Below are positions 1 through 40,201 of a stretch of 61,959 nucleotides of DNA, in pieces. The position numbers were made by a program, and so were the translations under genes. The stretch's first letter is position 1; each line of letters begins with the position of its first letter. Below the pieces are notes generated by a model. The model saw nothing but the letters and a program-made list of their open reading frames with translations. It did no database searches and was not told where the DNA came from. This DNA comes from a virus (taxonomy: Duplodnaviria > Caudoviricetes): IMG/VR virus record IMGVR_UViG_3300005573_000100, positions 1-61,959 of that record; one strand, written 5' to 3'.

Positions 1-1079
1 ATCTGCTTCGCAGCCTGAGAACCTCGTCTATAGGCTTCAGTGCCAACACCCTTCCAAAAACCACCAATCAATCCAGGCTGTTCTGCCAGTACCTGTCCTA
101 CTTGTTTAGCAGTCGGTTTGACCTTTTGTTCATAAGCCTGCTGCACAGGCTTGATGGCGGCCCGACCGGCTTGACTAAAACCAGTAGCCAACGGGCTGAA
201 AACACTCCGCAGGTACCCATCATCTCCAACTTTTTCGATGCTGCTCCTTATCCCAGCAGCCCATTCTTGGAATGTCTGTGGAGCAGAAGCACTTTTGCCT
301 CTGTTCAGTAAATAGCCAGCTACCAAACCAGCGCCCAACCAAGGACCAAACTTACGAGCGAGAGGACCATATTTAGCCATTCCCTCCATTAATGCAGGCT
401 GGACCTTTGCTGCAAGGGGTGTAGCCATAGCCTTCTGTGCTCTTCGTCTTGCCAAAAGGGCTGCGAGAACTCCAAGTCCTCCAAGTGTGCCGGCGGCTCC
501 TAATCCAGCAGCGACAGGATGTCCTTTAACAGCAGACAAAGCAGATTCAGCTGATGGTTTAACCTTTTCTTGATAAATTTTCCCAAGATCAGCCTTAGCA
601 CTATAAGCTTTGGCTTTTAGCGCCTCTTTACCTCTTCCAAGCAGTTCACCAATTAGCTGCCCAACAGTAGCCGACGGAAGTCTGGGTTTAATATCTGATT
701 GCCCACGCATCATTTGCCTATACTCTTCCATCCTTGCTTTCAGTTCATCCTCCGCGATAGCTTTGTCCACAGCTTCTCTTCCTGCTTCGGTCTGAAATGT
801 GGCTTGAATACCAGGAACTATAACTGTTTTGGGGGCTGGGTATCCAGCTTCGGTGTACGTGTGAACAATCTCCTCTACAGGATCACGAGTACTATATTGT
901 GGAACTGTCGGTTTTTTGCGTCTAAGTGGGGGAGACGATGGTGTTTTTCCAGCATAGTATGCATCAGGGTTGAACTTTTTCTCCATAAGCCCGGCAAAAG
1001 CTTCTCCGGGATAACCGATTATATTCAGTGCTTTGTTGTAGGTTTCTCTCCAACCGGCCAGTTTTTTCAAAGTGTTCAT
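1..1079 (-). CDS. Partial CDS (runs off left edge); Gly/Ala-rich putative virion protein, paralog of 1206..2027
   Basis: Not in the ORF track because it has no stop in the window. ATG at 1079 follows AGGAGG. Segments translated by hand in one frame: MNTLKKLAGWRETYNKALN...SAVKGHPVAAGLGAAGTLG...RGKSASAPQTFQEWAAGIRSSIEKVG...FWKGVGTEAYRRGSQAAKQ. Confidence 0.85.
   Translation of the reverse strand, partial: MNTLKKLAGWRETYNKALNIIGYPGEAFAGLMEKKFNPDAYYAGKTPSSPPLRRKKPTVPQYSTRDPVEEIVHTYTEAGYPAPKTVIVPGIQATFQTEAGREAVDKAIAEDELKARMEEYRQMMRGQSDIKPRLPSATVGQLIGELLGRGKEALKAKAYSAKADLGKIYQEKVKPSAESALSAVKGHPVAAGLGAAGTLGGLGVLAALLARRRAQKAMATPLAAKVQPALMEGMAKYGPLARKFGPWLGAGLVAGYLLNRGKSASAPQTFQEWAAGIRSSIEKVGDDGYLRSVFSPLATGFSQAGRAAIKPVQQAYEQKVKPTAKQVGQVLAEQPGLIGGFWKGVGTEAYRRGSQAAKQ
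482..512. repeat. 31-bp exact direct repeat (copy 1; copy 2 at 1664..1694) shared by tandem paralogs
   Basis: caagtgtgccggcggctcctaatccagcagc occurs at 482 and 1664 and encodes AAGLGAAGTL in both genes. Confidence 0.9.
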
Positions 1080-1205
1080 AACAGTCCTCCTAAAAACTAA
1101 TAATAAAATAGACTAAATGATGAGTATAGCTATAACTAATCATAAGTCTATTTACTCTATTACTACAAATCATCAATTTTTTACTTAACATTTAAGTGTC
1201 TGTGT

Positions 1206-2027
1206 CTATTTGTTTCTAAGCATAGAGTAACCAGCTAACTCACCAGCTGTAGGAGTTCTAACACGATACAAAGCTCTACCAGAAGGGCCTGGTGGCCCAA
1301 GTGGGTTAACCCCAGGTTTAGCAACTGCTTGAGGTATAGCCCCAGGAAAGATAGAAGCAATCTGTGGTTTAACTGCTGGAAATGAACTAACTGGCAACGA
1401 GCTAAGAGGATTAATAGTATTGAACCCTAATTTTTCAAGACCACTCCTTAATTCGTCAATCAACTCTTCCACTGTTGGCAAAGCAGAAGCCTGTTTGTTT
1501 TGCCTACGCCCTAATAAGTAGCCAGCAAGTAAACCACCACCAAGCCAGGGAGCAAGTCTGCCCAAACCTCCGAATGCTTCTGGAGCTCTTTGTGCAAGTG
1601 CTTCGGCGATTGATCTCTCTGCCCTTCGTCTTGCTAAAAGTGCTGCAACAGTTCCGACTCCAGCAAGTGTGCCGGCGGCTCCTAATCCAGCAGCAACAGG
1701 GTGTCTCGATATAGCAGACAAAAGAGCCGACGCTGTCGGCGTTGATGTTGGTGTTTTTTGTTCTGCCCCCTGTTGTTTTGGCTGATTTGCCCATGAAGGA
1801 GTCCATGGAGCACCAGGGTGTCCTGTCATGGAAGCCAAGAGAGGTGATGGTGCTTCTTCCGTTGTATCAACCGTTGTATCAACAACCGGCTTTTTAACTT
1901 TCCTAAATGCCAAACGTGCTTTCCTGTTCAAATCCGCAAGTGCTCTATTTACAGCTGCTTGATATGTGGGATATGCCCAAGGGTCGATACCCTGTGCATT
2001 GTCTGCCAATTTTTGCAAAGTGTTCAT
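1206..2027 (-). CDS. Gly/Ala-rich putative virion (internal/ejection) protein with two hydrophobic segments
   Basis: AGGAGG RBS; HPVAAGLGAAGTLAGVGTVAALLARRR and PWLGGGLLAGYLLGRR segments; KLA/KQAS motifs. Confidence 0.6.
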   Translation of the reverse strand: MNTLQKLADNAQGIDPWAYPTYQAAVNRALADLNRKARLAFRKVKKPVVDTTVDTTEEAPSPLLASMTGHPGAPWTPSWANQPKQQGAEQKTPTSTPTASALLSAISRHPVAAGLGAAGTLAGVGTVAALLARRRAERSIAEALAQRAPEAFGGLGRLAPWLGGGLLAGYLLGRRQNKQASALPTVEELIDELRSGLEKLGFNTINPLSSLPVSSFPAVKPQIASIFPGAIPQAVAKPGVNPLGPPGPSGRALYRVRTPTAGELAGYSMLRNK

Positions 2028-2080
2028 ATCAATCCTCCTAAAAAATACTAATGCATGCTAAAAGGTTAGTATAGACAGAA

Positions 2081-2836
2081 CTAACTATACAAAACATTTC
2101 CTACATTACTCCAAAGTTCATTTAGTCGCTTTACTGCCGCTTTATATCTATTACTACCAGGTGGGATATACTCTTTACCATAACTAATTCCACATGATTT
2201 TAGTAACGAATACTCGCCAGTAACCATCCTTACAGCGGCCATAGCTTTCCACAGTTGTCTATCATGCTGGAGATACAACCTGTTACTCTCTCTAAGTAAT
2301 ACGTCAGGGGCTATATGACCAGCTATTCTAGGCGCATCTAAACGCTTGAAAATCAATCCTTTAGTGTATCTATCAGCTAGTTCTTTTTCATCAAGTTCGT
2401 GGGCTATTACTAATTCTTTTAGTTTCCTTAGTTGCTCTTTATTTAGCTTTACTCCACCAAGAGGTCTCTTAGGAAGAATAGCTTTAGCAGTACGCAAATA
2501 GTCTTCTAAATCCGTAAGTTCTTGTATCTGCCGTTTTCGTTTTTCTGATAGCGCACTAATTACTCTATACGATGGAATTGCATGTGACCAATAGGTCTCT
2601 AAGAGACCTTTTCTTCTTAAAAGTTCTATCAGGGCTTGCTCATTGAAATGTGGGGCATCTTTAGGTATTCCTCTAATTTTTCTGATGAGGCTATCTATAG
2701 TAGAACTTGGGAAACCCATAAGCACCTTTGAATACGCCGGACCGTATTTCTTTCTGGCTTTTGGAAATTTAGAAAGCTCAACAAGAGCTTTTGCCCTTTC
2801 AAAGTTAGGATCAACCCTATTCGACCTAGTACTCAA
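2081..2836 (-). CDS. Hypothetical protein with HExxE...H (possible zincin-like) motif
   Basis: TTG start after GAGGT; VIAHELDE...AGHIAPDVLLRESN. Confidence 0.55.
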   Translation of the reverse strand: MSTRSNRVDPNFERAKALVELSKFPKARKKYGPAYSKVLMGFPSSTIDSLIRKIRGIPKDAPHFNEQALIELLRRKGLLETYWSHAIPSYRVISALSEKRKRQIQELTDLEDYLRTAKAILPKRPLGGVKLNKEQLRKLKELVIAHELDEKELADRYTKGLIFKRLDAPRIAGHIAPDVLLRESNRLYLQHDRQLWKAMAAVRMVTGEYSLLKSCGISYGKEYIPPGSNRYKAAVKRLNELWSNVGNVLYS

Positions 2837-2873
2837 ACTTCATACCTCTAACTAAAAAAATACAATAAGTTAG

Positions 2874-5800
2874 TTATTTTGTCTTCTTGTCCATTATTTG
2901 AGAAACGTCAGCAAAGTCAGTGCCGTATACTAAATCTGGGATTGGATTAAACGACTGAAGTTTAGTTTTCCCCCCAGTTATAGCCGCTTCAATAACACTT
3001 GTTTTAATGCGCTCGAAATTCAGCTTTGTCATCCAGTCACTTCCAACCTCCAGAGGTAGAACATTAATTCCTTTCAACACCGGTTTATATTTAACCGGAG
3101 GCAATTCTACTTTAACCTGGTCAGGAAGATGAGGCAGCATTTTTCTGTCCACAATTGTGCCTTTCTTGAATCCTTTGTAATTTTCCAATAGTTTCCCACC
3201 GACAGCGTTTCCTTTAGAAACCTCTGCAAATCTACCAGATTTGTTGAACCAGTTAGCATGGTTCAGTGGCACAAGATCTCCTTCTAACCAATGCGGATGG
3301 CCGCCTCTATCGTCTACTTCTGCTACATTAGTCAAGGCCTTTACTATGAGTTCAACATTAGTTCTTCTAATAGGAGTTTGTGTCCGAAGTAAATTGTATA
3401 TCTCATCAACCAACTTATTTCTAGTTCCTTCAACCCCGACAAGCTCCATATGTTTTCTTGGATTAAATAGTCCTGTAGAAATTGGCTGACCCTTAGTAAC
3501 CTTGTCGCCTACAGAGACTGTTACTTTCCTGTCAGAAGGAACCCAATGAGTAACCTTATTTATTACTATCTCTGTCCCTAAAGGCTTTTTGTGTATGGCT
3601 TCAACTTTTCCAAAAGTCTGGGCTAATACTGATTCTCCTGATAAATTCTCTGGGAATGCCAAAAGTTGACGTAGTCTATTAAAAGGAGATATTTGCGCGC
3701 CAACAGCGCCTCCAGTATGCCACCCAGAAAGAGCAAGCTGTGAACTTGGTTCGCCTATGGCATGTGCAGCAGATACCCCGACGAACTCGCCTAGCCTATG
3801 TTCTTTTCCACTTGGGTTCAATCCCATACATTTCTTACAAACCCCATGAGGAGCCTGGCAATTCAAAGGGGATCTAACTTCTAATTCTTTGATCTTAGCC
3901 TTCTTCGCTTCGGACAAAAGTTCCGGAGTAATTATTGTATTCCTACGATATACTTTACCATTTATGGTCACATCGTTAGGCAAGTACCTTCCCAGAATTT
4001 GGTCGTCATCAACACTCATATAAGTGCCCTTTTTAACCCCACAGTCATCGGAGGTCACTCTAACGTCTAATACTGATGCCAGCATTTGTTTCGATAACCA
4101 ACCAGGGTCTCTAATTTCACGAGCTTTTCCAGAAACCAGACCGGATCTTGCCCCAAGCATTGATGTAAAATAATCGGTCACATCCATCCCAGCACCATAA
4201 CCAGATTTTATAGGAACAGTAATCAATTTCCCGTGTTGCTCTACTAGACCAGGCCCGACAGTCATTTGCAGAAGTTGCCCAGGGTTACCTCTTGCTCCAG
4301 ATTCAACCATTTTGTAAAGAAACGAATCTTTTGGAAGAGTTTCCAATGCTTTTTTCTCTATGGCCGCTTTCGCAGATAGTAAAATCTTAGTTTTCTTGTC
4401 CTGATCTTTAGTATTGGCTGCCATGCGCTCAGCTTTGTCCCAGACCCGTTTAGTATATTCCTGTAAGGATTTAGGCACTTTTACATCTTCTATACCCATG
4501 CTGACGCCATATCTAAATGCATAGTCATTACCAAGAACTCTTAGCTTTTCAACTACCGATGGATAGTCGTTAGGATGTTTATGCCCGATGTCTGAAAGTA
4601 GTTTGGCAAGATTTTTACCAGTTAAAACATCTACCTCATAGCCTTTGGGCAGTGCCTGTTGAATAAGTATTCTTCCGGCAGTAGTCCTTTTCCCTGCGAC
4701 AGTTACTTCCTCATTAAGGGAAACCTTTTTCTCATTTACAGCAGTCATCAAATCTTTTACCGAATCGAATTTCTTATCCGATTTTTTCTCCACACGTGAT
4801 AAAAGGTATAGCCCCATCAACCCTTCGTGTCTTGGGGCGTACAAAGCCTTTCCTGATGTAGTGGAAAACAGGTTGTTGGAAGGTAATAAATTTTGTAGCT
4901 CTTTTACAGCGTTTTCTGTTACGGGAGTAAACACAGAAAACGCATCTCCATCAAGGTCTCCACCGAAACCCTGTAAGGTCAATGGGTGGATGTGTATAGC
5001 TTCTCCAGAAACAAGTTTGGGGTAAAAAGCCATCACATTATAACGATGCAATACCGGGTCTCTCTTTAATAATACAGGTCGCTCTTTCATTTCTCTTTCT
5101 AAGGCTGTCCTTGCGGCCGGAACTTTGTTTTTTACCATCTCAGTAGCCTGTAGAGTTGTGTAACCGGCTCTGGTCAATCTCCTTATAACTAAAGGACCAA
5201 AAATTGTCCAAGCCATTTTCTCAGGAAGTCCCACTTCATCAAGGGGCATACTTTCTTTAGGAACGACAATGACAGCCCTTGCACTTAGATCCTGCCTCCG
5301 CTTCAAAAGTGATTGTTGGAAATATCCTAATTTAGGTTGTGGTCCTGCTATAATATCGAGAACAGACCTATATTGCTTAGACCCAACTGAAAGCCCATTC
5401 ATCTGTAACGCCTCAAGGGCAGAATAAACTGACGAATAAGCATCTGCTTGTTCTTTATCTGTTAGCTCCTTTGCTTGTTTAAGTTGTTGATTTAGAATAC
5501 CAATGTTTCTATACAGTCCATTCAGGTCATTAACAGAAATACTTCTATCCTTAGTCTCGGTTATAGGCCTAAAATAAGGAGGGATAACCAACACATGCTT
5601 AGTCATGTAAACATCTTCGGGGTTTCTTTTCAACTCAGCAAGATGACGAAGTATTCTAATTTTTCTGGCCAGTTTTGCCCGCTCATTACCTGATGTGTTC
5701 TTTATTCTTTCTTCTGATTCTGCCAGCTCCTTTTTCACATCAAGCGTGGATAGCAATTTCTTAAAGGCTTTATCAAGACGGTATTTTCCATCTGGTGATA

Positions 5801-8800
5801 ATTTGCCATCGTCAGTAACACCCAATTTACCCTGTATTAGCTCATCATATTGAGTCCTTGTCATACCGAACAGAATGGCAAAAGCATCCTTGTAAATAGG
5901 ATTAGGAAACGACGCATTAAGTGTAATATGAGAATATTTAGTCCCTGTAATACCACCTGTTTTAACAGGGTCAAACAAACCGCCAGGTTCTTCTCTTAAA
6001 TCTTTACCCCTAATTATTTTGGTTGGGTCTATTTCACCTGAACTAAGCTTGAGAATATCTTCGTCATACAGTGGGTATAGCTGCAGCACATTTCCTGTTT
6101 TCTTTACATCTACTCCGAGCGTGCGCAAATAGTCGACAAATTTTTTATAGGGGACCGGCACAGATGGAGGTGGAAGAGGAGCTCCAGATTGCAAAGCGAA
6201 CCAAAACTCAGGATTCGCCGAACTTTTATATGTCTGCATTTCATACAGATTCTTCAATGCCCCATGAGCAAGCATCGCATAAAGACCAAGATGACCTAAA
6301 GATTGGGCTCCTTCTCCACCTAAAGGAATGGAATCATAAGAATACTTTTCCCCTACCCCACCTCCACGAGCAGTAGCTTTCGTCAAAGCAGTATGTTTAA
6401 GCTTCAAAATATATTCTGGACCCACCAGAACAGGATGCTCTGTTTTGACCCCTGTCGTCGGGTCTATTAGATATTCTTTGTCAGAAATTCTATGCTCTTT
6501 CAGTTCTTTCTCTATTTCTTCAAGGTCGCCTTTCTTAAATTGAGCGACCATCTTAGGTTTTCCTGTTTTTTCTGCTATCTTTCCAGCAGCTGCCTCTAAT
6601 ACTTGACCAAAATTGAGTCTTGAAGGTATACCAAGCGGGTTCACAATTACATCTATGGTCTTTCCTGATTCTGTTTTCGGCATCTCCGCATCTGGGACTA
6701 TGTAAGTTATTATTCCCTTAGGAGCGGCTCTAGTACTCAGTTTGTCCCCGACCTGAGCAGGTTCTTCTGTTTCTATGTAGACATCTATATTTTTGCCTTT
6801 TACAACCCTTACAACTCTACCTCTAAATGGGTTAGTCCAAGTAACAGTTTTATTTTTCCAAGGTTGATACAATTTCTTTGAGAACCTTGCTAAGAGAAGC
6901 TCTTCAGGTTTTGGTTGTATGTCGTGTTGGAGTACCGCTATTAAAGGATCTCCTTCATCAACATACTCACCTTCCTTAATTACTCCATCAGAATCCAGCT
7001 TATTCAACTGATTAGTATTAAAAATCCCAGGATACAAAGCGAGTAGCTTATTTTTGGATACAGCTATTCCTTTTGAAGTATAAACATTCTCTCTATACAA
7101 ATGGCGTGATGTTAGCTTTTTAGCTGCACTTTCAGATACCACTATTCCGTCCTCAAAGTTTAATCCTTTGTATGGAACATAAGCAACTAAAAGATTCTTA
7201 CCTATCTTGAGTTTTCCTTGTTTATCTGTAAAATTTGTTTCACTAACAATATCTCCCTTTTTAACCTTGTCGCCTGGTTTGACTATTGGGGTAGAATGGG
7301 CGTAACCACCGTCTTCAAGAGGGAAATAATTAAGAAGAGGAACTTTCGCCACGTTCTTTCCAGATTTTATTACTATGTGGTCTTTGGTTACTTTGGACAC
7401 AACACCGTCAATAGGCGATTCAACCATCGGGAACGCGGCTCTTCCAACATCAGACCAACCGTGTCCTTTCGCCACTTCAACATCAACTAATGGATGATCA
7501 GCATCGACAAGAGGTAGGCTCTGTTCAATATGCTTAGTAGCAAGAAGAGCTCTATTACCAGAATCATGAGCTAAAAAAGGTATACCCAAAGAAGCTATGT
7601 CGAAAAGTGCCTCCGGCACATCAAACATATAATCTACCTTGCTGGCTGGTATATCTACTATTTCATGCTTATGGATTGCTTTTACTCTAGGAGAAACAAA
7701 ATTAATCTTGCCGTCTACGATTTTTACCTGATCTGGAAGAACCACAAAAGATTCAAAAGCTTTCTCAGGTGTTATATAAGTGTATTGCTTATTTTTAACA
7801 TCCCACACCTTGGAGACTAAAGAGTCTCCTTTCTTTTTGGCTCCAGCAGCCATATGAACAACCAGCCCAGCTTTTGAATTGTCTGGAGTCATTATCGGGT
7901 CCAAAAAACCAAAAGTAGATGGATCCAATTGCTGTTGTTTCTCTACAATCTGGTCGAGAGATGAGATACCACCTTCTCCCAGAACCGTAACCTTAGACCC
8001 AGACGAAGCAATATCTACAGGGTTTACTTGAGAAGGAAGCCCGACAACTTGGCTGGAGGTAAAAAAAGTAAGAATAGGATGAGAAAAATGTTCAGATATA
8101 ACAATCTTAGATATATCATTTAGCCTGTCGAGTCTTGCTAAAGTTCTGTTGTGCAAAACCTGTTTGGATTTTAGTATCCTTTCTTTCAAAAAATCAGCTG
8201 TATCTATTGGGGTTTTGAATGCGAGGGAGTTTTTATCATCCTCCTTAGCCATACCTTTAGAAACACCAATAACTTTTTTTGTGGCAAGTAATAACACATT
8301 CCCATCTACTTTAGAGAAAGATCGTCCAAGCGTCAATTTAGAAACGTTTGGATCAAGCACGGTCTCGTTGAATACTTTACTAATATCCTCAGGGTTTACC
8401 CCTAGCGCCCTAGCAAAACGAGCAACCGTTTTTTCTCTGTCTTTTATGTTTGCTTTATAAATATCTTCTCCGACTAATGATTTTAGTTCTTGCCCAGAAA
8501 CTCCGAGATGCTCTAGTATCGGGAATAGTGGAAGTTCTGAAGACCCATAGTTGAAACTAAATATCCTTGTAGTAGGGTCAAAAACAACAGCGGCACTTTT
8601 ACCTCTTAGGTTAACTAAATTAAGTTTGGCTTGAATAGTTCCATCCTCTTTACGCTCTGTGTAAACCCCAGGCTTCAACCTAAGCTGTATAGGAACAGTA
8701 TATTCAGTGCCACCCACAATATATGAATATCTATCTGTCAATGCAGGAAGATGCGCCAAAGTCATTTTCTTCCGATCCAACACCTTTCCTGTGGCTTTAT

Positions 8801-9017
8801 CTATAAGAGAAAAATCCCCCACCACCCTCTGAAATAGACTTCTATGGCTTAACTTAGCCTTAAGTTGGGCTGGGTAGTCTGACATATACTCATTAGGTTC
8901 AACATCAACACCGTTTAGTCGCAGAATATGCTTACTCCCTTCTATGGGGAATACTTGCATAAACGCATCTGCAACCGATTTGGCAATGTCTCGGCTATGC
9001 TCAATAGGGTCGATCAT
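2874..9017 (-). CDS. rpoBC: DNA-directed RNA polymerase, fused beta-beta' subunits (phage-encoded)
   Basis: Beta motifs: NRALLA, GKNLLVAYVPYKGLNFEDGIVVSE, GDKLSTRAAPKGII, NPLGIPSRLNFGQVLE, YILKLKH. Beta' motifs follow in the same frame: GGLFD, KRRQDLSARAVI, PVLLKRDPVLHR, GGDLDGD, SGARG, DDCG, RSPLNC..HGVCKKCMG, GEPSSQLALSGWHTGG. Confidence 0.97.
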   Translation of the reverse strand: MIDPIEHSRDIAKSVADAFMQVFPIEGSKHILRLNGVDVEPNEYMSDYPAQLKAKLSHRSLFQRVVGDFSLIDKATGKVLDRKKMTLAHLPALTDRYSYIVGGTEYTVPIQLRLKPGVYTERKEDGTIQAKLNLVNLRGKSAAVVFDPTTRIFSFNYGSSELPLFPILEHLGVSGQELKSLVGEDIYKANIKDREKTVARFARALGVNPEDISKVFNETVLDPNVSKLTLGRSFSKVDGNVLLLATKKVIGVSKGMAKEDDKNSLAFKTPIDTADFLKERILKSKQVLHNRTLARLDRLNDISKIVISEHFSHPILTFFTSSQVVGLPSQVNPVDIASSGSKVTVLGEGGISSLDQIVEKQQQLDPSTFGFLDPIMTPDNSKAGLVVHMAAGAKKKGDSLVSKVWDVKNKQYTYITPEKAFESFVVLPDQVKIVDGKINFVSPRVKAIHKHEIVDIPASKVDYMFDVPEALFDIASLGIPFLAHDSGNRALLATKHIEQSLPLVDADHPLVDVEVAKGHGWSDVGRAAFPMVESPIDGVVSKVTKDHIVIKSGKNVAKVPLLNYFPLEDGGYAHSTPIVKPGDKVKKGDIVSETNFTDKQGKLKIGKNLLVAYVPYKGLNFEDGIVVSESAAKKLTSRHLYRENVYTSKGIAVSKNKLLALYPGIFNTNQLNKLDSDGVIKEGEYVDEGDPLIAVLQHDIQPKPEELLLARFSKKLYQPWKNKTVTWTNPFRGRVVRVVKGKNIDVYIETEEPAQVGDKLSTRAAPKGIITYIVPDAEMPKTESGKTIDVIVNPLGIPSRLNFGQVLEAAAGKIAEKTGKPKMVAQFKKGDLEEIEKELKEHRISDKEYLIDPTTGVKTEHPVLVGPEYILKLKHTALTKATARGGGVGEKYSYDSIPLGGEGAQSLGHLGLYAMLAHGALKNLYEMQTYKSSANPEFWFALQSGAPLPPPSVPVPYKKFVDYLRTLGVDVKKTGNVLQLYPLYDEDILKLSSGEIDPTKIIRGKDLREEPGGLFDPVKTGGITGTKYSHITLNASFPNPIYKDAFAILFGMTRTQYDELIQGKLGVTDDGKLSPDGKYRLDKAFKKLLSTLDVKKELAESEERIKNTSGNERAKLARKIRILRHLAELKRNPEDVYMTKHVLVIPPYFRPITETKDRSISVNDLNGLYRNIGILNQQLKQAKELTDKEQADAYSSVYSALEALQMNGLSVGSKQYRSVLDIIAGPQPKLGYFQQSLLKRRQDLSARAVIVVPKESMPLDEVGLPEKMAWTIFGPLVIRRLTRAGYTTLQATEMVKNKVPAARTALEREMKERPVLLKRDPVLHRYNVMAFYPKLVSGEAIHIHPLTLQGFGGDLDGDAFSVFTPVTENAVKELQNLLPSNNLFSTTSGKALYAPRHEGLMGLYLLSRVEKKSDKKFDSVKDLMTAVNEKKVSLNEEVTVAGKRTTAGRILIQQALPKGYEVDVLTGKNLAKLLSDIGHKHPNDYPSVVEKLRVLGNDYAFRYGVSMGIEDVKVPKSLQEYTKRVWDKAERMAANTKDQDKKTKILLSAKAAIEKKALETLPKDSFLYKMVESGARGNPGQLLQMTVGPGLVEQHGKLITVPIKSGYGAGMDVTDYFTSMLGARSGLVSGKAREIRDPGWLSKQMLASVLDVRVTSDDCGVKKGTYMSVDDDQILGRYLPNDVTINGKVYRRNTIITPELLSEAKKAKIKELEVRSPLNCQAPHGVCKKCMGLNPSGKEHRLGEFVGVSAAHAIGEPSSQLALSGWHTGGAVGAQISPFNRLRQLLAFPENLSGESVLAQTFGKVEAIHKKPLGTEIVINKVTHWVPSDRKVTVSVGDKVTKGQPISTGLFNPRKHMELVGVEGTRNKLVDEIYNLLRTQTPIRRTNVELIVKALTNVAEVDDRGGHPHWLEGDLVPLNHANWFNKSGRFAEVSKGNAVGGKLLENYKGFKKGTIVDRKMLPHLPDQVKVELPPVKYKPVLKGINVLPLEVGSDWMTKLNFERIKTSVIEAAITGGKTKLQSFNPIPDLVYGTDFADVSQIMDKKTK

Positions 9018-9066
9018 CTCTATAAAATTTTACTCTAAATTACTAAAATACGCCACTAACGATATG

Positions 9067-9130
9067 ACTAAAAAAATAATTAGTCTCCCCGGCTCAGACT
9101 AAAGTATAATTAGTCCAAGACCGGGGAGAC
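9067..9130 (-). terminator. Nested hairpin / putative terminator of the replication operon
   Basis: gtctccccgg (9083-92) pairs with ccggggagac (9121-30); inner gactaa/ttagtc stem; followed on the minus strand by TTTTTTTAGT. Confidence 0.65.
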
Positions 9131-9151
9131 CTATCAAGGAGGTGGTAATTA

Positions 9152-10012
9152 TCAAGAATCAAATATATCGTGTTCCAAAGGAACACCCAGAGCAGTTAAC
9201 AGAAGTTTTTCAAGATCGTCGTCAGAACTATTCACAATATCCTCCTCTTTGTAGCCAAAAGATACCAGCTTTTTGATAAGTAAATTTCTGCGCTCTGTTG
9301 AATCTTCAGATGGGTTGTCAGTGTCAGGTTTCCTACCTGAGATAATAGTCTCCAGCCTCTCTAGGAGACGAATTATCTTATCATGATCATCCATGATCGT
9401 AACCATCATTTTTCTGACAATATTATCTATGTCCTGGATGGCACCTTCGACTGAAATTTTATCAGATGCGGATATAGCAAGTTTGCCGGCTGTGGCCAAA
9501 TACTTCAGCTGCGCTATTCTAGTTGCTATCGGCAATCCTCTGCTAATCCCCAGTTCTTTGCATATGGAGTCAAATAAATCAGTTGATTCTGGATGAGGTT
9601 TTGCAGCTTCCTTTTTATCTGGTTTCTTATCCTCTGTTACGGTAGGCTTTCCTACTGTTATAACAGACTCACCTGTAGGACTGAATGGGTCGGCTATAAC
9701 TTGTTTGTCCGGCGCGCTCTCAACACGTCGCTCCTTAACTTGTTTAGGAGCATGACTTGGTCCACCATCCTGTGATGATGATACAACTATGCTATCAGCC
9801 ACGGAATCTACAATTTCTTCTGGGCTACGACCTTGAGTGATTAACTCCATAATTTTCTCAAGGACGTCTATTTTAGCGGCTACAAAGAAACTCTTTCTAG
9901 CCGCCTTACCGTACTTAGCCCCGACAATGTCTTGTAGGGCTGGGCATCTCTGCTTTATCTGCTCTACCATTGCCCATTTTTGGGCGACTCCCGTGTTTTT
10001 TCTTTCTCCCAT
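9152..10012 (-). CDS. Hypothetical protein
   Basis: 286-aa ORF, AGGAG RBS, last gene of the minus-strand operon. Confidence 0.75.
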   Translation of the reverse strand: MGERKNTGVAQKWAMVEQIKQRCPALQDIVGAKYGKAARKSFFVAAKIDVLEKIMELITQGRSPEEIVDSVADSIVVSSSQDGGPSHAPKQVKERRVESAPDKQVIADPFSPTGESVITVGKPTVTEDKKPDKKEAAKPHPESTDLFDSICKELGISRGLPIATRIAQLKYLATAGKLAISASDKISVEGAIQDIDNIVRKMMVTIMDDHDKIIRLLERLETIISGRKPDTDNPSEDSTERRNLLIKKLVSFGYKEEDIVNSSDDDLEKLLLTALGVPLEHDIFDS

Positions 10013-10031
10013 ATTTATTCTCCTTTCTAAA

Positions 10032-10361
10032 TTAGTTTACAGGCTGTCTTCTTACCCACCACAAAATCTTTTTCAATACCACCTTACAATCTAAAGGATG
10101 ATCTTCCATTTCGAAATCGTCTGGTAATTCCTCCTTACGCAAGTAATCCTCCCATATAGCATAACATGGAAGCTGGTCATGACTAAACGGTGGATTCCCC
10201 TTAATGGGGCGAATACCCTTAGCTTTTGTATACTTAGAACAAGGACATTTCCTACACCCAAACGACTTACATAGATGGCATACATTAGGATCGCCATAAC
10301 TTTGTTGCTCTAAACATACCTGCAGAGCTTCAATATAATCTTTTTTCTCTTTGGCCTTCAT
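10032..10361 (-). CDS. Cys-rich hypothetical protein
   Basis: CHLCKSFGCRKCPC; ATGA overlap with upstream gene. Confidence 0.7.
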   Translation of the reverse strand: MKAKEKKDYIEALQVCLEQQSYGDPNVCHLCKSFGCRKCPCSKYTKAKGIRPIKGNPPFSHDQLPCYAIWEDYLRKEELPDDFEMEDHPLDCKVVLKKILWWVRRQPVN

Positions 10362-10765
10362 GCTTTCTCTCCCTCTTTTTTTCTGAAATTACCGTTTTCA
10401 TCATACAGTAAACGCCTAATCTCTTCTCGACGCTCCCTGATTTGGCGTTTTCTAAGTTTTATTTTTTCCTTTTCTTCAGGAGTGGCTCTTTTGCCTAGTT
10501 TTGAAAGTTTGTAGTCCAAATCCCTAGATTCATTGTCCAAACGATAATCTTCTCTAGCTAGCTTTTTCAGATGCTCAGGAAAGTCTTCAACATGCTCGTT
10601 CTCCAACATATTATTGAACGCCCTATAGCCCATAAAACACACTGATGTTGGATCAGCCTCGGCAATTTCCAAGGCTGTTATTGGCTCAAGCCCTTTTATT
10701 TTTCCAACTAATTCATTGTGGGCTTCCGCCATCTGTTTGAATTTTTCTTCTGGTTCCGGTTTCAT
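10358..10765 (-). CDS. Hypothetical coiled-coil protein
   Basis: Charged helical ORF in operon context. Confidence 0.7.
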   Translation of the reverse strand: MKPEPEEKFKQMAEAHNELVGKIKGLEPITALEIAEADPTSVCFMGYRAFNNMLENEHVEDFPEHLKKLAREDYRLDNESRDLDYKLSKLGKRATPEEKEKIKLRKRQIRERREEIRRLLYDENGNFRKKEGEKA

Positions 10766-11378
10766 CCTCTTTCTCCTTTCTTTGGTTATTGTTACCTGTA
10801 TCCACTTTTATCCAGTTATCATTTATCACACAGTTTAATACTCCATCCTTTATAGACCATGAACTAATTATTAAGTAATTCTTTAGTGTATCAAGAACCT
10901 CATGAAGGACTGGAATTGAAATACCATGTCTGTTACAAATAGTCGGCACATCAGTAATTCTATAGTAAATCTCAAGTAAAATCAACTTTGCGATATGTGA
11001 CAGGCATACAAAACGGGGTGAATCCCATACTGCAGAAGGAAGGACCAAATCGTGAGATACCCGAACAATAGGCTTTTTAAAATCAAAGGCTGGTTCTATC
11101 TTTATAGAGCCTAACTTAGCAATAATCTCGTTTGCCGACCCACACTGTAATTTATTACATAAAAATTTGAGAAATTTACTAGACATGGACCCAACTAAAG
11201 GGATTATTTTGTCTGGTTGGGTGTTGGCTATACGGACAACATTGGTTATCCAACAGTTTACAAGAACAGCGTCAGAGCAGTTCATACAATCTAATGTGCA
11301 ATTAGATGTAAGCAATAAAATACTCCTATTGGCATCAACATATGATTTCATAACCCTTCTAACATCATCCAAATTCAT
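10713..11378 (-). CDS. Hypothetical protein
   Basis: Start moved to MNLDD (11378), which gives an ATGA overlap with the RusA stop. Confidence 0.65.
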   Translation of the reverse strand: MNLDDVRRVMKSYVDANRSILLLTSNCTLDCMNCSDAVLVNCWITNVVRIANTQPDKIIPLVGSMSSKFLKFLCNKLQCGSANEIIAKLGSIKIEPAFDFKKPIVRVSHDLVLPSAVWDSPRFVCLSHIAKLILLEIYYRITDVPTICNRHGISIPVLHEVLDTLKNYLIISSWSIKDGVLNCVINDNWIKVDTGNNNQRKEKEDETGTRRKIQTDGGSPQ

Positions 11379-11842
11379 CCTAGTTTCTCCAATTGGGAAT
11401 ATATAATCCACATACCTGTCACATCCCAAGAATGTTGTTTATCTATAACCAACCTAAAATTAGCCATATCATCAATTCCTAAGATATTTTTAACAACATC
11501 TTCTACCAGCTTAATACAATTTGATATATCGTGTCTGCGGAATTTGCTTTTTGCCTTCTCTGTCTTTGTAAGCCACGGACCTACAAATACAAGATTTAGT
11601 AGGTATGTCATATTTTCTTCATTAGGGAATTCAGAAATCTCTTTGAAATAGTTTTGGGTCAGGTAGGAAGTTGCGTCAATAATAAATTTTCTGGCTTTTG
11701 GGGACAAAACTCTTCTTTTCTGGTCCCAAATGGTTATATACATCTCATTTGAAGTTGGAGGCCACATTGGAAGCCACATCTTAAGCGTTGAAACACTCTG
11801 ATTTTCCTTTGTTTTTTCAGTATTATCAAATTCTTCCCCCAT
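11375..11842 (-). CDS. rusA: RusA-family Holliday junction resolvase
   Basis: PPTSN...RRHDISNCIKLVEDVV..ILGIDD matches the RusA DxxNxxKxxxD...DD signature. Confidence 0.85.
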   Translation of the reverse strand: MGEEFDNTEKTKENQSVSTLKMWLPMWPPTSNEMYITIWDQKRRVLSPKARKFIIDATSYLTQNYFKEISEFPNEENMTYLLNLVFVGPWLTKTEKAKSKFRRHDISNCIKLVEDVVKNILGIDDMANFRLVIDKQHSWDVTGMWIIYSQLEKLG

Positions 11843-12314
11843 ATTTTTCTCCTTCCAAGTTTATTCCCCTCAAAGTTATCTCCCTGGATAGAGCTTTCAA
11901 ATAGCGAAGATAAATATCCTGTTTTGCTTCCAAAAGAGTGCAAGAGTTTTCAAGAAAAAGTAGGGTTTGATCTAGTTCTATGAACTCTGGGTCTGTCATC
12001 AAAGTATTATCAAACTCTGTTTTCGGCCCTTCGTACTTTCTCTCAAACGCCTTTTTAAAAAGTCTTATCTTGCGCTCTTGCTCATGCTTACGGGCTGTGA
12101 ATAAAGAAAGCTTAGAGTTTATATAGTTAGCCCACATAGTGAATTTGCTCATCAAAGAAGATAGCTCTCTAAGGTTTAACTCTCCAACATCTTTAGGAAA
12201 TACAGGTTCAGATTCATTTTCTGGAACCGGCTCTTCTACACGAAGACCCATAACACCAAATTCTTTGAAAATCTCTGCCTGAGCGTTGTAAAACGCCTTA
12301 ATATCCACAGTCAT
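11826..12314 (-). CDS. Helical protein, possibly UvsY-like recombination mediator
   Basis: Long coiled-coil with a DPEF turn, located among RecA, nuclease and resolvase genes; family call is inference. Confidence 0.4.
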   Translation of the reverse strand: MTVDIKAFYNAQAEIFKEFGVMGLRVEEPVPENESEPVFPKDVGELNLRELSSLMSKFTMWANYINSKLSLFTARKHEQERKIRLFKKAFERKYEGPKTEFDNTLMTDPEFIELDQTLLFLENSCTLLEAKQDIYLRYLKALSREITLRGINLEGEKYGGRI

Positions 12315-12320
12315 TGAAAA

Positions 12321-13193
12321 TCACTCTCCTTTCGGTCTTGGTGTTACGTACTCGTTTTTACTGCAGTACTTGTAATAAGAACAATACTTGTCGCAGTGGC
12401 CATAGAATGCCATTCTGTTTGGTGGGAAGCTACCTGATATTATACTCTTCCATACCTCATACGTAGTCTGAAGAAAAGATTCGAAATCTTCTACACCGAA
12501 CTTTACATCCTCTGACACGACCTTAGGATTTTTACCAAAAACCAGACAATCTACCCTAGCAGAAAATTTCCGTTTTTTCCTAAATGATTCAAGAAGAGGT
12601 CTTGGGATAGGACCTAATATGTTTTCTTTTATCTGTCTCATTACTGCGTAGCTATATCCTTGCATCTGTAGACTTCTTGAAAACTCTCCTTTACTCGGAC
12701 TTTTTTCTTTAGTCTTGTGATCTATTAGAATTAGTTCATTTGTTAATAGGTCTATTACTCCACTAAAATTTATCTTGTTCTGAGTAAATGGAAACGGCAT
12801 AAGGAATGGATACTCTACGCTCCAATCTGTAGGATACGGAAAAGTATATGGGGCTATTTTGTCAAAATACTCACCAAGAACAGCTGTTCCTAAATCGAGC
12901 ATTTCTCCATAGGAAGAATCCAACCAGTCGACAGAGTCTTTTTCAAAAGATAGCTCTTTTTCGTAGATCTCAAGAACTTGTGACAGACGCATGTCCTGGC
13001 GATGATACACCTTAAATCTATAGTTATGTTCAAGAGCCGCATGCACAGCTGTCCCGCGAAGCAAATAATATGTCTTTGGCGGATCAGGAATTTCAGGACA
13101 AAGATACTTATAATAATAGAATCTTCCGCATTTCAAATAGTCCTGGACCTGAGTTGTACTAAGCACTGGTATTTCCAAAAATACCACCCCCAA
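12321..13193 (-). CDS. PD-(D/E)XK exonuclease (RecB/Cas4-like)
   Basis: LS.TQ...Y..C, RGTAVH, VE.PF, SGVIDLL, IDHKT, Q..GY, C-terminal C..CSY...C. Confidence 0.88.
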   Translation of the reverse strand: MGVVFLEIPVLSTTQVQDYLKCGRFYYYKYLCPEIPDPPKTYYLLRGTAVHAALEHNYRFKVYHRQDMRLSQVLEIYEKELSFEKDSVDWLDSSYGEMLDLGTAVLGEYFDKIAPYTFPYPTDWSVEYPFLMPFPFTQNKINFSGVIDLLTNELILIDHKTKEKSPSKGEFSRSLQMQGYSYAVMRQIKENILGPIPRPLLESFRKKRKFSARVDCLVFGKNPKVVSEDVKFGVEDFESFLQTTYEVWKSIISGSFPPNRMAFYGHCDKYCSYYKYCSKNEYVTPRPKGE

Positions 13194-13661
13194 TCAGTAT
13201 TTAGATAGATACTCTAATACTAAACGCATAACTTCATTAATGTCGAACAGCTTACCTGGGCAAGATTTAGGAGCGAAATCTCTATGCCCATATATAGAGT
13301 TAATATCAAGTTTGAACACAATTAACAGATTGGCGACTAGCTCTGCAAGTTTTGCATACATCTTAAAAGTAGGTGAAACAATGTCGTAGTTTCCAACACA
13401 GCATATCCCAATACTGTTCTCATTCTGGCCAATAGTATGAGCACCAACAGACAGCAAAGGACGGCCGACAAGTATCTCTAGGTTATTATCGATAAGCTCA
13501 ATGCCGAAATGATAGCCAATATCCGACCATCCATTAGTGTTTATATGATAGTTCCTTATTGCCTGCCAACTAACAGTCTTACCATCTTCGGTCAAACTGT
13601 GGTGGATTATGATCTTATTTGTCGTTGCTCTTTTCTTAATTTTTGCTACTTCATTAGTCAT
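13194..13661 (-). CDS. N-acetylmuramoyl-L-alanine amidase (Amidase_2, T7 lysozyme-like)
   Basis: IIIHHS, GWSDIGYHF, GRP..VGAH..GQN.NSIGIC..GNY, YGHRDF.PKSCPG. Confidence 0.93.
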   Translation of the reverse strand: MTNEVAKIKKRATTNKIIIHHSLTEDGKTVSWQAIRNYHINTNGWSDIGYHFGIELIDNNLEILVGRPLLSVGAHTIGQNENSIGICCVGNYDIVSPTFKMYAKLAELVANLLIVFKLDINSIYGHRDFAPKSCPGKLFDINEVMRLVLEYLSKY

Positions 13662-13680
13662 GGTAAATTCTCCTTTTTAG

Positions 13681-14775
13681 TTATTTTACACTATCAACCT
13701 TTCTTTTATTACTCCAGAACTCAACAACCTTCTTATGTATCTCTTCACGTATATCTGGCTGTTCCATCAAATACTTGTCCAAAGATGCTTGACCATGAAA
13801 ACTCCTACCTGCATATTCATAGTATGCCCCAGATCTCGTAATGACATTGGCTTTGCACGCTTCCTGACGCACATCCTTGATGTAATCTATTTCTCCAGCC
13901 TTAAATGGAGGATTATCCTTGATATAAAAATCAAAATTCCCATCAGAATGCTCAAGACAATTAGAGATTTTACTTTTAGTTATGATGAATCTAACAGCTA
14001 TTCCAACAACCTCGTCTTCCTCGCTCCTTATCAGATCCTGTCGTATAAACTTTATTGACAGGTTCTTGAAATGCCTAAGACCTCTTCCACCTGGGGTGTA
14101 CTCAAGTTCATCTGGAGAATAGTCCCAACCAAGACCGAACTGAACTCTAACCTGATTTATGAGAATAACAGATGTTTGGTTAGGATCCGATCCTTTTCCC
14201 AAAGTGTTTATAACTTTACGAAGGAATGTATTCAATAAAGATACAGGAGCTATATAGCGTTTACCTATCTGACTTTTCGCTTCGGTTTCAGCTGTAAGTG
14301 CAGGAACAGAGTCAAGTATAACCAATGAAAATTTCCTGCTTGTAATCATCCGAAAAGCTACCTCTAATGCATCTTCAGCCTTGTTAGGATAAACCACATT
14401 TAGTCTATCATCGAGAGGGACGCCTAATTTCCTAGCCCAATCTTCAGATACAGGAGATTCCATGCACACATAACCGACACATGCATCTGATAGCTGTTTC
14501 ATGGCCGATGAAGCGCACTTTAGAGCTATGGAAGTCTTACCAACACTTTCAGGACCCCAAAATTCTATAATAGCTGCCTTAGGCAAACCTCCACCGAGAG
14601 TCACATCGAGAGCTAATATACCTGTATTAATTCTGGTGAGTTCTGGAGCATTTGCGATGTCATTACCAGACAAAACACAAATCTCTCTCTTCTCGACGTC
14701 CAGTTTTCCTAGCCAATCAAACTTTTTGTGTGTCTCTTCCAAGAGAACCTCCACACATAGGGCAGTAATAGTCAT
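13681..14775 (-). CDS. recA: RecA/UvsX recombinase
   Basis: TGILALDVTLGGGLP, GPESVGKTS (Walker A), VILDSVPAL, ILINQVR, TPGGRGL, SGAYY. Confidence 0.95.
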   Translation of the reverse strand: MTITALCVEVLLEETHKKFDWLGKLDVEKREICVLSGNDIANAPELTRINTGILALDVTLGGGLPKAAIIEFWGPESVGKTSIALKCASSAMKQLSDACVGYVCMESPVSEDWARKLGVPLDDRLNVVYPNKAEDALEVAFRMITSRKFSLVILDSVPALTAETEAKSQIGKRYIAPVSLLNTFLRKVINTLGKGSDPNQTSVILINQVRVQFGLGWDYSPDELEYTPGGRGLRHFKNLSIKFIRQDLIRSEEDEVVGIAVRFIITKSKISNCLEHSDGNFDFYIKDNPPFKAGEIDYIKDVRQEACKANVITRSGAYYEYAGRSFHGQASLDKYLMEQPDIREEIHKKVVEFWSNKRKVDSVK

Positions 14776-15028
14776 CGCCCCGTTTTATCAGGTGGTTGCC
14801 ACAACTGCTACATTTTTTTCCTTTTTCTTGGACAAATTGGTAGTGGCATCTTGGACAATCTTTGACGATCAACAATTCTCGATTAGAATTAAGCTTTGTT
14901 ATCCAATCTAGCATTTTCCCACCTATATCTCTTTCCATAAGTTTAGAACCTGCGTCTATCAATTTGATTAGCACAGGAACTAAGCCATAAGGTATCCTCA
15001 AAAGTACTTCAGTATCTTTCTTTATCAT
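14717..15028 (-). CDS. Zinc-ribbon protein
   Basis: CPRC, CSSC and CPMC pairs. Confidence 0.65.
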   Translation of the reverse strand: MIKKDTEVLLRIPYGLVPVLIKLIDAGSKLMERDIGGKMLDWITKLNSNRELLIVKDCPRCHYQFVQEKGKKCSSCGNHLIKRGDDYYCPMCGGSLGRDTQKV

Positions 15029-15030
15029 AA

Positions 15031-15357
15031 CTATTCCCCTTGTTCAGAACTAGAAACAGATTGCTCCTTAACATCTGGCTGTTTCTCGCGGGATGGTAAA
15101 GAGCAGAAATACCACAGCATCTTGAATCTTTTAATTAAATCTTTGAACAAAAGTTTAATAACAGAAATTCTCACGCTTCCAGGTTCTGTTTCCAATTTCT
15201 TCAGAATAGCTACATTTTCCTTATGAATCTGCAGCATAAAACTGGCGCAACAATTCACTGCAGATGATCTCCATGAATGAACACGCCCACAGAATGGGCA
15301 ACTCTTCTCACCTCTAACCATCCAGTTCGATTCCCCGCATCTACCATTTGCACTCAT
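15031..15357 (-). CDS. Hypothetical protein with CPFC motif
   Basis: AGGAG RBS; CPFCGRVH...CC. Confidence 0.65.
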   Translation of the reverse strand: MSANGRCGESNWMVRGEKSCPFCGRVHSWRSSAVNCCASFMLQIHKENVAILKKLETEPGSVRISVIKLLFKDLIKRFKMLWYFCSLPSREKQPDVKEQSVSSSEQGE

Positions 15358-15382
15358 TGTTTACTCTCCTTTCTTTATTTTA

Positions 15383-17203: not shown

Positions 17204-17209
17204 CCTTGG

Positions 17210-18313: not shown

Positions 18314-18338
18314 CTTTCTTTCTCCTTTCTCTTTTTAT

Positions 18339-21959: not shown

Positions 21960-21988
21960 ATTCTAAACAAAAGCCTGTCAAAAGTCAA
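21960..21988 (-). promoter_or_regulatory. Sigma70-type promoter for the replication operon
   Basis: TTGACT-17-TAGAAT upstream of udg. Confidence 0.7.
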
Positions 21989-38710: not shown

Positions 38711-40201
38711 CTAATCAGGTAAAAAACACAGCTTTCTTTTCCTTCCGATTCTGCGAAGTCTTCTTAGTGCACGGGTTTCTATTTGTCTAATACGCTCCCG
38801 AGTAACACTAAAGTTCTGACCTAGCTCTTTAAGGGTATGCTCTTCGTCATCCAAACCAAATCGCATACGCAAAATCTGCTGCTCCCTAGGGGTTAAAAAA
38901 GAAAATAATTTGTCAATCTGCTTTCTCAAATCGTCTTCAAGAACTTTACTCATCGGACTAGGAATATTGACATCAGGGATTAAGCCACCAACCGTATTTT
39001 CCCCATCTCCTATGGGAGTGTCGAGACTAATTGGGTCTTTTGTTACATCTAACATCTTTGCTATTTTAGTCGGTGATTCGTCCAAATGATTGGCCAACTC
39101 TGTGACAGTAGGCTCTCTATTCAAAAAAGATGTTAATTCGGAAGAAGCGGATGCGATTTTTGTTAGCATCTCTGTCACATGCACAGGTAGTCTAATAGTC
39201 CTCGATTGATCGGCTATAGCCCTTGTGATAGCCTGTTTAATCCACCATGTGGCATAAGTAGAAAATCTATATCCTTTCCAGCACTCAAACTTATCAACCG
39301 CCCTCATAAGCCCTATATTTCCTTCCTGAATCAAATCAAGGAACGAAATGGCTTTTCCGGCATAGTGTTTGGCTACACTTACTACGAGCCTAAGATTAGA
39401 TTTTGTCAAATCCTCTGTGAGCTTTTGCTCTTTTGCCCAAGCACTTTTTATTTTTTCTACAATCTCAGACGAAGCATCAAGACTTAGACCAAGTTCTTCC
39501 TCTATTCTTCTGATTTCCTTATGACAATTTACAATGGTTCTCTTGGCCTTGCCAAACACACCGTCAGATTGATTAAACCCAAGTCTGACGATGTCTGCAG
39601 CTGTCGCATCAAACATGTTCTCAATCTGTCTAATTCTATCGGTAAGTTTTTTACCTTGTTCTATAAGGTTTTCAATCTGTCTTAAAATGTCTTGTTTCTG
39701 TTGAAAGGTCAGGCCAAGTTCTTGGATAAGCTTAAACTCTTGCTCATTTAGTTCTTTCCATCTGTCGTTGTCTACGCTTAAACCATCAAGTTCGTTTTCC
39801 AATCTAATTAGTTGGTCTATAATAGAAAAAATCTCACTTCTATTCTGACTAGAGTCAAGTTCAAGACAAGATTCTTCTTCCATACAATCTTGATCGGTTT
39901 CTCTAAGACTTTGACCCCAGCTAATTAGTTCCGAAAATGCTTTCCTATGTAAAAAAAGGAGACGGGTAATGGTCTCCTTTATCTCCCCTATTTGTTCAGC
40001 CAAGTCAAATTCACTTACCCTATCCAATAGCGGATGAGAACCTATGTCCTTTAGATACCGTTTTACAAGGTCAACTGAGTTGTCAACTTGATAGACCGCC
40101 TCTTCCTCAATAGGTTCAGTTTCTTGGCTGGCTAAATCAATTTCGTGGAATCCAAAGGCTTGGTCATCAAAACCATCTCCACCGTCTCCTAAGCCACTCA
40201 T
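38711..40201 (-). CDS. RpoD-like sigma70 factor (regions 1.2, NCR, 2, 3, 4)
   Basis: YLKDIG.HPLL..E..LA; [11 protein letters not shown]; [17 protein letters not shown]; [29 protein letters not shown]; [25 protein letters not shown]. Confidence 0.96.

Follow-up and report, generated by a model that had tools for sequence, protein, structure and literature searches.

Fused, ribbon-less beta-beta' RNA polymerases of a large phage family probably act as single-chain cores without phage-encoded alpha or omega subunits

The DNA analyzed here (the window) is a 61,959-bp viral contig of IMG/VR (Duplodnaviria; Caudoviricetes; record IMGVR_UViG_3300005573_000100), and it encodes a 2047-amino-acid protein, P0001, that joins a bacterial-type RNA polymerase's beta and beta' subunits in one chain. 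The single-chain form is the usual architecture of a large, barely characterised family of phage polymerases, and the gene is under strong purifying selection that acts over its full length. As judged from its sequence, the protein is probably an active core for which the phage need not supply an alpha or omega subunit and which is initiated with a sigma factor. CheckV estimated the completeness of the contig as 34%, so the source genome would be about 180 kb in size. Window DNA was present in two hot-spring metagenome runs (X1 and X2), which are possibly its source; a search of sequencing runs listed four DNA runs and no RNA run that contain it, and a megablast search of positions 1-25000 against phage records gave no matches. 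The features discussed are collected in Table 1.

The polymerase gene starts with ATG on the minus strand and runs without an internal stop codon in both the list of open reading frames (ORFs) and the translation. A sequence-only reading of this DNA had placed beta and beta' motifs in one ORF, and the Pfam domains were found in that order: Rpb2_3 (residues 330-393) and Rpb2_6 (residues 537-887, E = 1.7e-61) of beta precede Rpb1_1 to Rpb1_5 of beta' (residues 1082-1805). Five of the seven models were above the Pfam cut-off (Rpb2_6, Rpb2_3, Rpb1_2, Rpb1_4, and Rpb1_5) and two were marginally below it (Rpb1_1, 37.4 vs. 39.7 bits; Rpb1_3, 28.0 vs. 28.9 bits). The best matches among the sequences of solved structures (PDB phmmer) were bacterial beta' subunits, with 8i23_D at the top (E = 3.9e-99; P0001 residues 1083-1918 against residues 196-1094 of the chain). 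The top matches in PHROGs, phrog_24349 and phrog_25354, are both labeled as having unknown function.

The C-terminus of beta, with the consensus LG(V/I)(D/N)V(K/E)K (LGVDVKK in the window), joins the N-terminal strand of beta' without a linker. Two segments were modeled with AlphaFold2 from alignments of 43-44 family sequences. The model of the junction and clamp (residues 900-1300) had a predicted local distance difference test score (pLDDT) of 85 and a predicted template modeling score (pTM) of 0.77, and the top Foldseek matches were to the N-terminal third of bacterial beta' (template modeling score TMq, 0.63-0.68). The model of residues 4-430 (pLDDT 88, pTM 0.83) matched the beta subunits of plastids, Thermus, mycobacteria, and Escherichia coli among the 50 rows listed, with Z scores of 20-25 over 352-415 aligned residues; its positions 1-427 correspond to residues 22-501 of Thermus beta. 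All core modules are present in P0001 and are confidently predicted to fold like those of bacterial beta and beta'.

Residue-level comparisons used an alignment of 35 intein-free, full-length relatives, 32-40% identical to P0001, to which E. coli beta and beta' were then added, and a set of 31 bacterial beta/beta' pairs from at least 12 phyla. The proteins of the family are 2010-2151 amino acids long compared with 2274-2928 amino acids for the bacterial pairs, whose lengths were taken from stop to stop and are hence slightly too long; the E. coli subunits (1342 and 1407 amino acids) are likewise longer together than P0001, as the sequence-only reading had held for cellular subunits in general. 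Its description of the enzyme as streamlined applies to a modest degree, to trimmed loops and a lost zinc ribbon, as no core domain is missing. A variable insert of some 45 amino acids (residues 1930-1975) was found in 11 of the 35 relatives.

The beta' N-terminal zinc-binding domain had also been read as deleted, and the alignments agree. The segment GGLFDPVKTGGITGTKYSHITL of P0001 aligns at the E. coli beta' ribbon block, which includes CEKCGVEV and MGHIEL, and because it occupies that position the four-cysteine ribbon is deleted. At least four cysteines were present in this block in all 31 bacterial beta' subunits, and none of the 35 family proteins had any. When the alignment was scanned for blocks that at least 70% of the bacteria have and no more than 20% of the family share, the ribbon (26 columns) was the only lost element longer than 11 columns. 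The second zinc site of beta' aligns with the DDCG, SC, and CxxC elements of E. coli, and each of its four cysteines was kept in at least 90% of the family sequences.

The catalytic elements are kept. The residues D1354, D1356, G1357, and D1358 of the magnesium-binding motif were invariant (DxDGD in 35 of 35 sequences). Of the active-site elements of beta, NFEDG is kept, and GDKLSTRAAPKG retains the K, R, and K of GDK..R...K. The bridge helix keeps GAR.G, and the trigger-loop histidine is present in P0001 and in almost all of the listed family variants. Both docking sites for sigma, the tip of the beta flap and the clamp helices of beta', remain alignable to E. coli. Residues Q513, D516, H526, R529, and S531 of E. 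coli beta, which we take to line the rifampicin pocket, are replaced in P0001 by G, S, S, K, and T, respectively, and the threonine at position 531 is found in all 35 family sequences.

The fused form was found repeatedly in viral metagenomes. A word-indexed protein search scored 7999 candidates and gave 307 proteins with E ≤ 1e-10, including many full-length fused proteins on contigs of up to 215 kb, others lengthened by intein or homing-endonuclease domains, and shorter ones of about 1450-1500 amino acids. At least 344 IMG/VR stretches encode a relative. Eighty-three loci were inspected, and 61 of the 71 that could be assessed have a single-frame polymerase: 44 with fewer than 2250 amino acids and 17 with 2250 or more and inserts. 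Seven loci have two pieces, two have the N-terminal piece only, and one has three pieces that in-frame TGA codons connect; the remaining 12 loci run off the end of their contig. When 1.84 billion cluster representatives were searched with a profile of the junction segment, 1679 matched with E ≤ 1e-30; the top 150 all had E ≤ 6e-132, and about 135 of these cover the whole profile without a break. In a species-level genome collection, 79 of the best 80 loci were ordinary rpoB-rpoC pairs, and the sole phage-type match lies in a metagenome-assembled genome, on a contig of 3.7 kb. Searches of the literature for fused beta-beta' polymerases of phages found no description of a fused family without the ribbon, although the supplements of one earlier survey, discussed below, might list fused genes.

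Two side observations concern the same gene in relatives. Inteins or homing endonucleases (PF14528, PF14890, PF05204, and PF03161) lie within the polymerase gene of P0002, P0006, P0010-P0012, and others, and at the 17 loci with inserts intein-type elements extend it to 2250-3600 amino acids; the window copy has none. In one IMG/VR relative (L073:10166-16036), the polymerase frame is broken only by in-frame TGA codons at 10166, 10472, 11036, 12848, and 15941 and ends with TAA; TGA is probably a sense codon in this phage.

Phylogenetic analysis (IQ-TREE in quick mode, LG+G4, MAFFT fast progressive alignment; 66 rows and 1925 columns) gave one branch of about 1.2 changes per site between the 35 proteins of the family and the 31 bacteria, with 100% support in the Shimodaira-Hasegawa-like approximate likelihood ratio test (SH-aLRT). 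The family thus lies outside the sampled bacteria, where a decaying cellular copy, the outcome that the sequence-only reading had set against its own interpretation, would branch inside a cellular clade. The sample was without Bacillota, Cyanobacteriota, Deinococcota, archaea, and eukaryotes, no mixture model was applied, and one long branch (P0061) was flagged. Between P0001 and its counterpart on L004, a separate contig that is 98% identical, there were 242 synonymous and 36 non-synonymous differences, and the ratio of non-synonymous to synonymous rates (dN/dS) was 0.039.

No alpha or omega gene was found alongside that of the polymerase. Six-frame searches for alpha (PF01000 and PF01193) and omega (PF01192) were empty in all five records searched, namely the window, two related contigs, and two complete genomes, those of Salmonella phage Arash (180,819 bp) and Vibrio phage D69 (186,708 bp), and 14 of 14 control genomes were positive; the absence that had been noticed in the window thus extends to complete relatives. 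Another 15 large contigs of relatives were searched, of which 12 have a completeness of at least 90%, and none had alpha over the cut-off or any omega match; the one sub-threshold alpha match was interrupted by stop codons. A hidden alpha-like subunit among the ORFs adjoining the polymerase gene was considered and dropped since these ORFs are not conserved in the family. On the basis of the absent genes, independence from alpha is plausible and, on balance, favored.

A sigma factor gene, which had been named in the sequence-only reading, is present at 38711-40201. Its product resembles RpoD, with E = 7.9e-84 against bacterial RpoD in the PDB phmmer search, and it is a rather likely initiation factor of the polymerase. 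Sigma region 2 was over the cut-off in three of the five records (Arash, D69, and the window) and scored 80.6 bits in the window compared with at most 46 bits in the other family genomes. Because the window sigma diverges from bacteria far less than the polymerase does, its sequence points to acquisition from a host not long ago and not to a long shared evolution with the polymerase.

Table 1. Positions of the polymerase gene, its parts, and other features in the window
Feature	Position	Strand	Basis or context
Fused beta-beta' RNA polymerase core, single ORF (P0001)	2874..9017	-	ORF translation, Pfam, PDB phmmer, dN/dS
Beta module, residues 1 to ~965: lobes, fork, catalytic barrel (NFEDG, GDK..R...K), flap	6123..9017	-	Alignment to E. 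coli beta, AlphaFold2
Beta' module, residues ~966 to 2047 plus stop codon	2874..6122	-	Alignment to E. coli beta', Pfam Rpb1_1 to Rpb1_5
Junction and clamp segment, residues 900-1300	5118..6320	-	Junction alignment, AlphaFold2, Foldseek
GGLFDPVKTGGITGTKYSHITL, residues 1012-1033, segment replacing the beta' N-terminal zinc ribbon	5919..5984	-	Translation, alignment
GGDLDGD, residues 1352-1358, catalytic Mg-binding Asp triad (bacterial NADFDGD)	4944..4964	-	Alignment
Second zinc site, C1659, C1720, C1727, C1730	3828..4043	-	Alignment with E. coli DDCG, SC, CxxC
RpoD-like sigma-70 family factor, 496 amino acids, regions 1.2, 2, 3, 4	38711..40201	-	Pfam, phrog_351, six-frame PF04542 (80.6 bits), PDB phmmer
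TAAAAT (9027-9032), 9 nt upstream of ATG; candidate -10 element	9018..9032	-	Read from sequence
Terminator-like hairpin GTCTCCCCGG ... CCGGGGAGAC, GC-rich, then T-run, between upstream gene and polymerase gene	9070..9130	-	Read from sequence
Helicase	21985-23310	-	Upstream of polymerase gene
DnaB-like helicase	19271-20608	-	Upstream of polymerase gene
Primase	18339-19271	-	Upstream of polymerase gene
PolA	15383-17203	-	Upstream of polymerase gene
RecA/UvsX-like recombinase	13681-14775	-	Upstream of polymerase gene
PD-(D/E)XK exonuclease	12321-13193	-	Upstream of polymerase gene
Three downstream ORFs, 359+, 273, and 251 amino acids	3-1079, 1206-2027, 2081-2836	-	ORF list
TerL	26534-28126
Portal homologue	30434-32086
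Homologues of Arash structural proteins gp236 and gp237	34818-37260

The closest systems under cultivation are Salmonella phage Arash (gp206 and gp216) and the Vibrio phages D69, D181, and D148, whose polymerases are homologous to P0001 over 98% of its length with 29-31% identity. Arash and D69 resemble the window in having beta followed by beta', genomes of about 180-187 kb, no alpha or omega gene, and shared TerL, portal, helicase, sigma, and structural genes. They differ in two respects. The chain is cut within beta' in both phages (1525 + 606 amino acids in Arash and 1527 + 609 amino acids in D69, with gaps of 4.7 and 0.6 kb between the pieces), whereas P0001 is one chain, and their polymerase gene follows the portal gene, whereas that of the window follows replication genes. 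In the part of the Arash paper available to us, gp206 and gp216 are simply labeled beta and beta' (PMC10585845).

The cut is at a similar site in the cultured relatives, near residues 1410-1440 of the window protein, and the gaps have different contents. Two small ORFs occupy the D69 gap (L001:12543-13180), in which no intron was detected and no Rfam match was found; a homing endonuclease occupies the gap in D181 and D148, and other genes that in Arash (L002:12534-17303).

The family also resembles the mReC phages, IMG/VR Caudovirales with deep-branching beta and beta' described by Weinheimer and Aylward in 2020 (PMC7481178): in the consulted portion of that source, as here, beta and beta' can be recognized by models of the cellular subunits and branch deeply, in a clade separate from bacteria. 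In the same portion, the terms fused and fusion are applied to crAssphage alone, and a Gp23-type capsid (PF07068) is reported for mReC. This capsid was not found in any of six complete or near-complete relatives (Arash, D69, G003, G009, G004, and G008; the T4 control gave 1.6e-122), and membership of the family in mReC is unsettled for that reason. The TerL domain PF03237, as in mReC, was over the cut-off in the window (26690-27025, 22.2 bits) and had E ≤ 0.01 in four of the five records.

Other phage polymerases are more distant. Those of the jumbo phages phiKZ and AR9, virion and non-virion, are, in the sections of the sources drawn on here, related to beta and beta', lack alpha and omega, and include one set that is packaged (PMC7598289, PMC13282480). 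These enzymes consist of four to five very divergent polypeptides and have no sigma, whereas P0001 is one chain with recognizable motifs and has an RpoD-like sigma in its genome. Reviews, in the excerpts used, contrast phages that have their own polymerase without a sigma with phages that have their own sigma without a polymerase (PMC7824862, PMC13282480); the window and Arash carry both. The crAss-like phages and YonO share with P0001 the presence of both catalytic barrels in one polypeptide. According to the same portion of the mReC paper, they have no detectable similarity to cellular beta/beta' models (PMC7481178), in contrast to P0001, which matches such models strongly.

Natural fusions also occur in bacteria. 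In the Helicobacter example compared here, a 2901-amino-acid open frame of Helicobacter anseris, the C-terminus of beta is joined to the N-terminus of beta' in the same order as in P0001, but the fusion keeps the zinc ribbon, has an extra linker, and is about 850 residues longer. Wolbachia has another natural beta-beta' fusion.

The following mechanism is consistent with these observations. Covalent fusion and tighter contacts between beta and beta' would, on balance, replace the role of the alpha dimer and omega in assembly, and the core would then work without either. Since the beta' clamp helices and the beta flap tip can still be aligned, initiation would be sigma-dependent, with the phage RpoD-like sigma as the likely partner, or else perhaps a sigma of the host. 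The replaced pocket residues would make the enzyme insensitive to rifampicin, so that the phage could transcribe independently of the host polymerase. The gene would be expressed with the replication genes and would have a start of its own just past the terminator-like hairpin, possibly on a leaderless mRNA. Packaging of the enzyme in the virion for early transcription is a possible further step.

Several observations weigh against parts of this reading, and the first of them concern the virion. The sequence-only reading had put the gene among putative virion genes, which is not the case in the window. There the gene is set among replication genes and closes a module of primase, DnaB-like helicase, PolA, recombinase, and exonuclease, and the TerL and portal genes are 17.5-21.5 kb away. 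The polymerase may well be a non-virion protein that is made after infection, with its gene transcribed first by the host polymerase, and that then takes over transcription at the middle or late stage without ever being packaged. The Arash results can be read in the same direction: in the available part of the paper, 116 of 272 proteins were particle-associated ("structural"), ribonucleotide reductases and ligases among them, and the authors offer carry-over as an alternative (PMC10585845). Carry-over is possible in these particles because their proteome is so broad. Set against this, gp206 had the highest spectral count of the particle preparation (3516 spectra), gp216 had 1210, and the sigma gp10 was also detected, as reported in that same part (PMC10585845). 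Moreover, the polymerase gene lies downstream of a portal homologue on the same strand at 52 of the 83 family loci (312-9610 nt from the polymerase frame), and the portal gene is also upstream in Arash and D69. By analogy with the Arash proteomics, which concern a relative only about 31% identical, packaging of the window polymerase can be suggested tentatively.

The next observations concern alpha and omega. Their absence from the window alone says little, because no more than about 34% of the genome lies in the window, and host alpha and omega could still be used. Bacteria with beta-beta' fusions still have alpha, and the Helicobacter fusion, an ordinary cellular enzyme, was placed within Campylobacterota inside the bacterial clade of our tree. 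The fusion might then merely tether the large subunits, and the host alpha dimer, perhaps with omega, would be borrowed for assembly and for the response to activators, which would make the enzyme a phage/host hybrid. As the phage genomes encode neither subunit, any alpha must be host-derived, and the canonical folds predicted for beta and beta' suggest that alpha-binding surfaces may persist. We regard such a hybrid as unlikely, given that other phage multisubunit polymerases function without alpha and omega, as stated in the parts of the sources consulted (PMC7598289, PMC13282480). The hosts are also diverse (Salmonella, Vibrio, and hot-spring bacteria) and the polymerase sequences differ by 60-70%, from which we infer that a conserved fit to each host alpha would be demanding. 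The role of sigma is subject to similar reservations: region 2 was over the Pfam cut-off in only five of the 15 large relatives, so that a phage sigma is not a demonstrable constant of the family, and the window sigma, if captured, may serve the host enzyme.

Lastly, some near-universal motif positions are altered in P0001. The motif NADFDGD is changed to GGDLDGD, and RAAPKG stands where most family members have RHGNKG, with H-G-N replaced. Such unusual substitutions beside catalytic residues could mean that RNA polymerization has been lost and that the protein has another role, for example as a structural protein or as a decoy that binds host sigma or DNA. This is highly improbable considering that the aspartate triad and the basic K..R...K residues themselves are kept, that similar substitutions occur in other family members (G for N in six of the 35), and that purifying selection acts over the full length. 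A cellular rpoBC copy that was captured recently or is decaying, or two genes merged by an artefact of assembly or frameshift, has in its favor that the sequence is clearly bacterial-type. This reading is already contradicted by the phage clade apart from all sampled bacteria, the low dN/dS, the same single frame in L004 and in most assessable loci, and the single phage-type locus among the best 80 of the genome collection.

The start region of the polymerase gene is unusual for the window. Most ATG-started genes of the window have AGGAG(G), whereas the polymerase start lacks a Shine-Dalgarno motif, and with the candidate -10 element so close to the ATG the sequence fits a leaderless or very short-leader mRNA. 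A scan of positions 1-20000 for sigma-70 consensus sites found 37 compared with 47.7 expected, and no site lay upstream of the polymerase gene; the consensus scan missed the hairpin because the hairpin loop is longer than 8 nt. Among relatives, 27 of 44 have a Shine-Dalgarno-like word, and recurrent -10-like boxes near their ATG codons were judged indistinguishable from chance. Elsewhere in the window, the apparent first genes of transcription units at 21985-23310 (-), 44607-47129 (+), 53644-53964 (-), and 59293-61077 (-) are likewise without a Shine-Dalgarno motif, and a TATAAT-like hexamer precedes their ATG by 7-8 nt; in one of them, TTGATT-17-TATAAT-7-ATG lies slightly inside the TTG start that was called at 23310. 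Leaderless first genes of transcription units may be a habit of this phage.

An intergenic k-mer search found the octamer GACTAATT in nine copies compared with 3.0 expected, a number reached in none of 100 shuffles. The sites include 9078-9085, 9108-9115, 38670-38677, and 38699-38706, and there are five more; seven intergenic occurrences were counted over both strands, and five of the nine sites lie between ORFs by position. The polymerase gene's upstream hairpin has two flanking copies, and two more are just downstream of the sigma gene. The octamer was rejected as a promoter motif because its contexts yield no coherent motif.

The ORFs next to the polymerase gene gave few clues. The first downstream ORF begins after a gap of 37 nt, and the three downstream ORFs had no Pfam, PHROGs, or usable Atlas match and homologues in L004 alone among the relatives. 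The ORF upstream (9152-10012) likewise had no Pfam, PHROG, or usable Atlas match and a homologue only in L004. No Rfam match and no tRNA were found in the window.

The observation that the same frame occurs in L004 and at 61 of 71 assessable loci shows that the fusion is not an assembly artefact, and the preferred reading, an active single-chain core, can be extended. A bolder form, which we consider doubtful, is a self-sufficient holoenzyme of two polypeptides, the beta-beta' chain and sigma, that lacks alpha, omega, and the ribbon, is carried in the virion and injected, and never needs the host polymerase. If true, such a holoenzyme would break the reviewed dichotomy between phages with a polymerase and no sigma and phages with a sigma and no polymerase. 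It would also be a minimal, orthogonal, sigma-dependent transcription system, of which a hot-spring version might be heat-stable.

To our knowledge, every multisubunit polymerase of cells is assembled on an alpha-type platform. An alignable single-chain core from genomes without alpha and omega offers a direct test of what these subunits are needed for, and the contribution of the beta' zinc ribbon to initiation, termination, and antitermination can be tested in the same way. A single-gene core with a sigma would be a convenient orthogonal transcription module. Such experiments are feasible now, because metagenomes hold many members of the family and some (Arash and Vibrio phage D69) are in culture.

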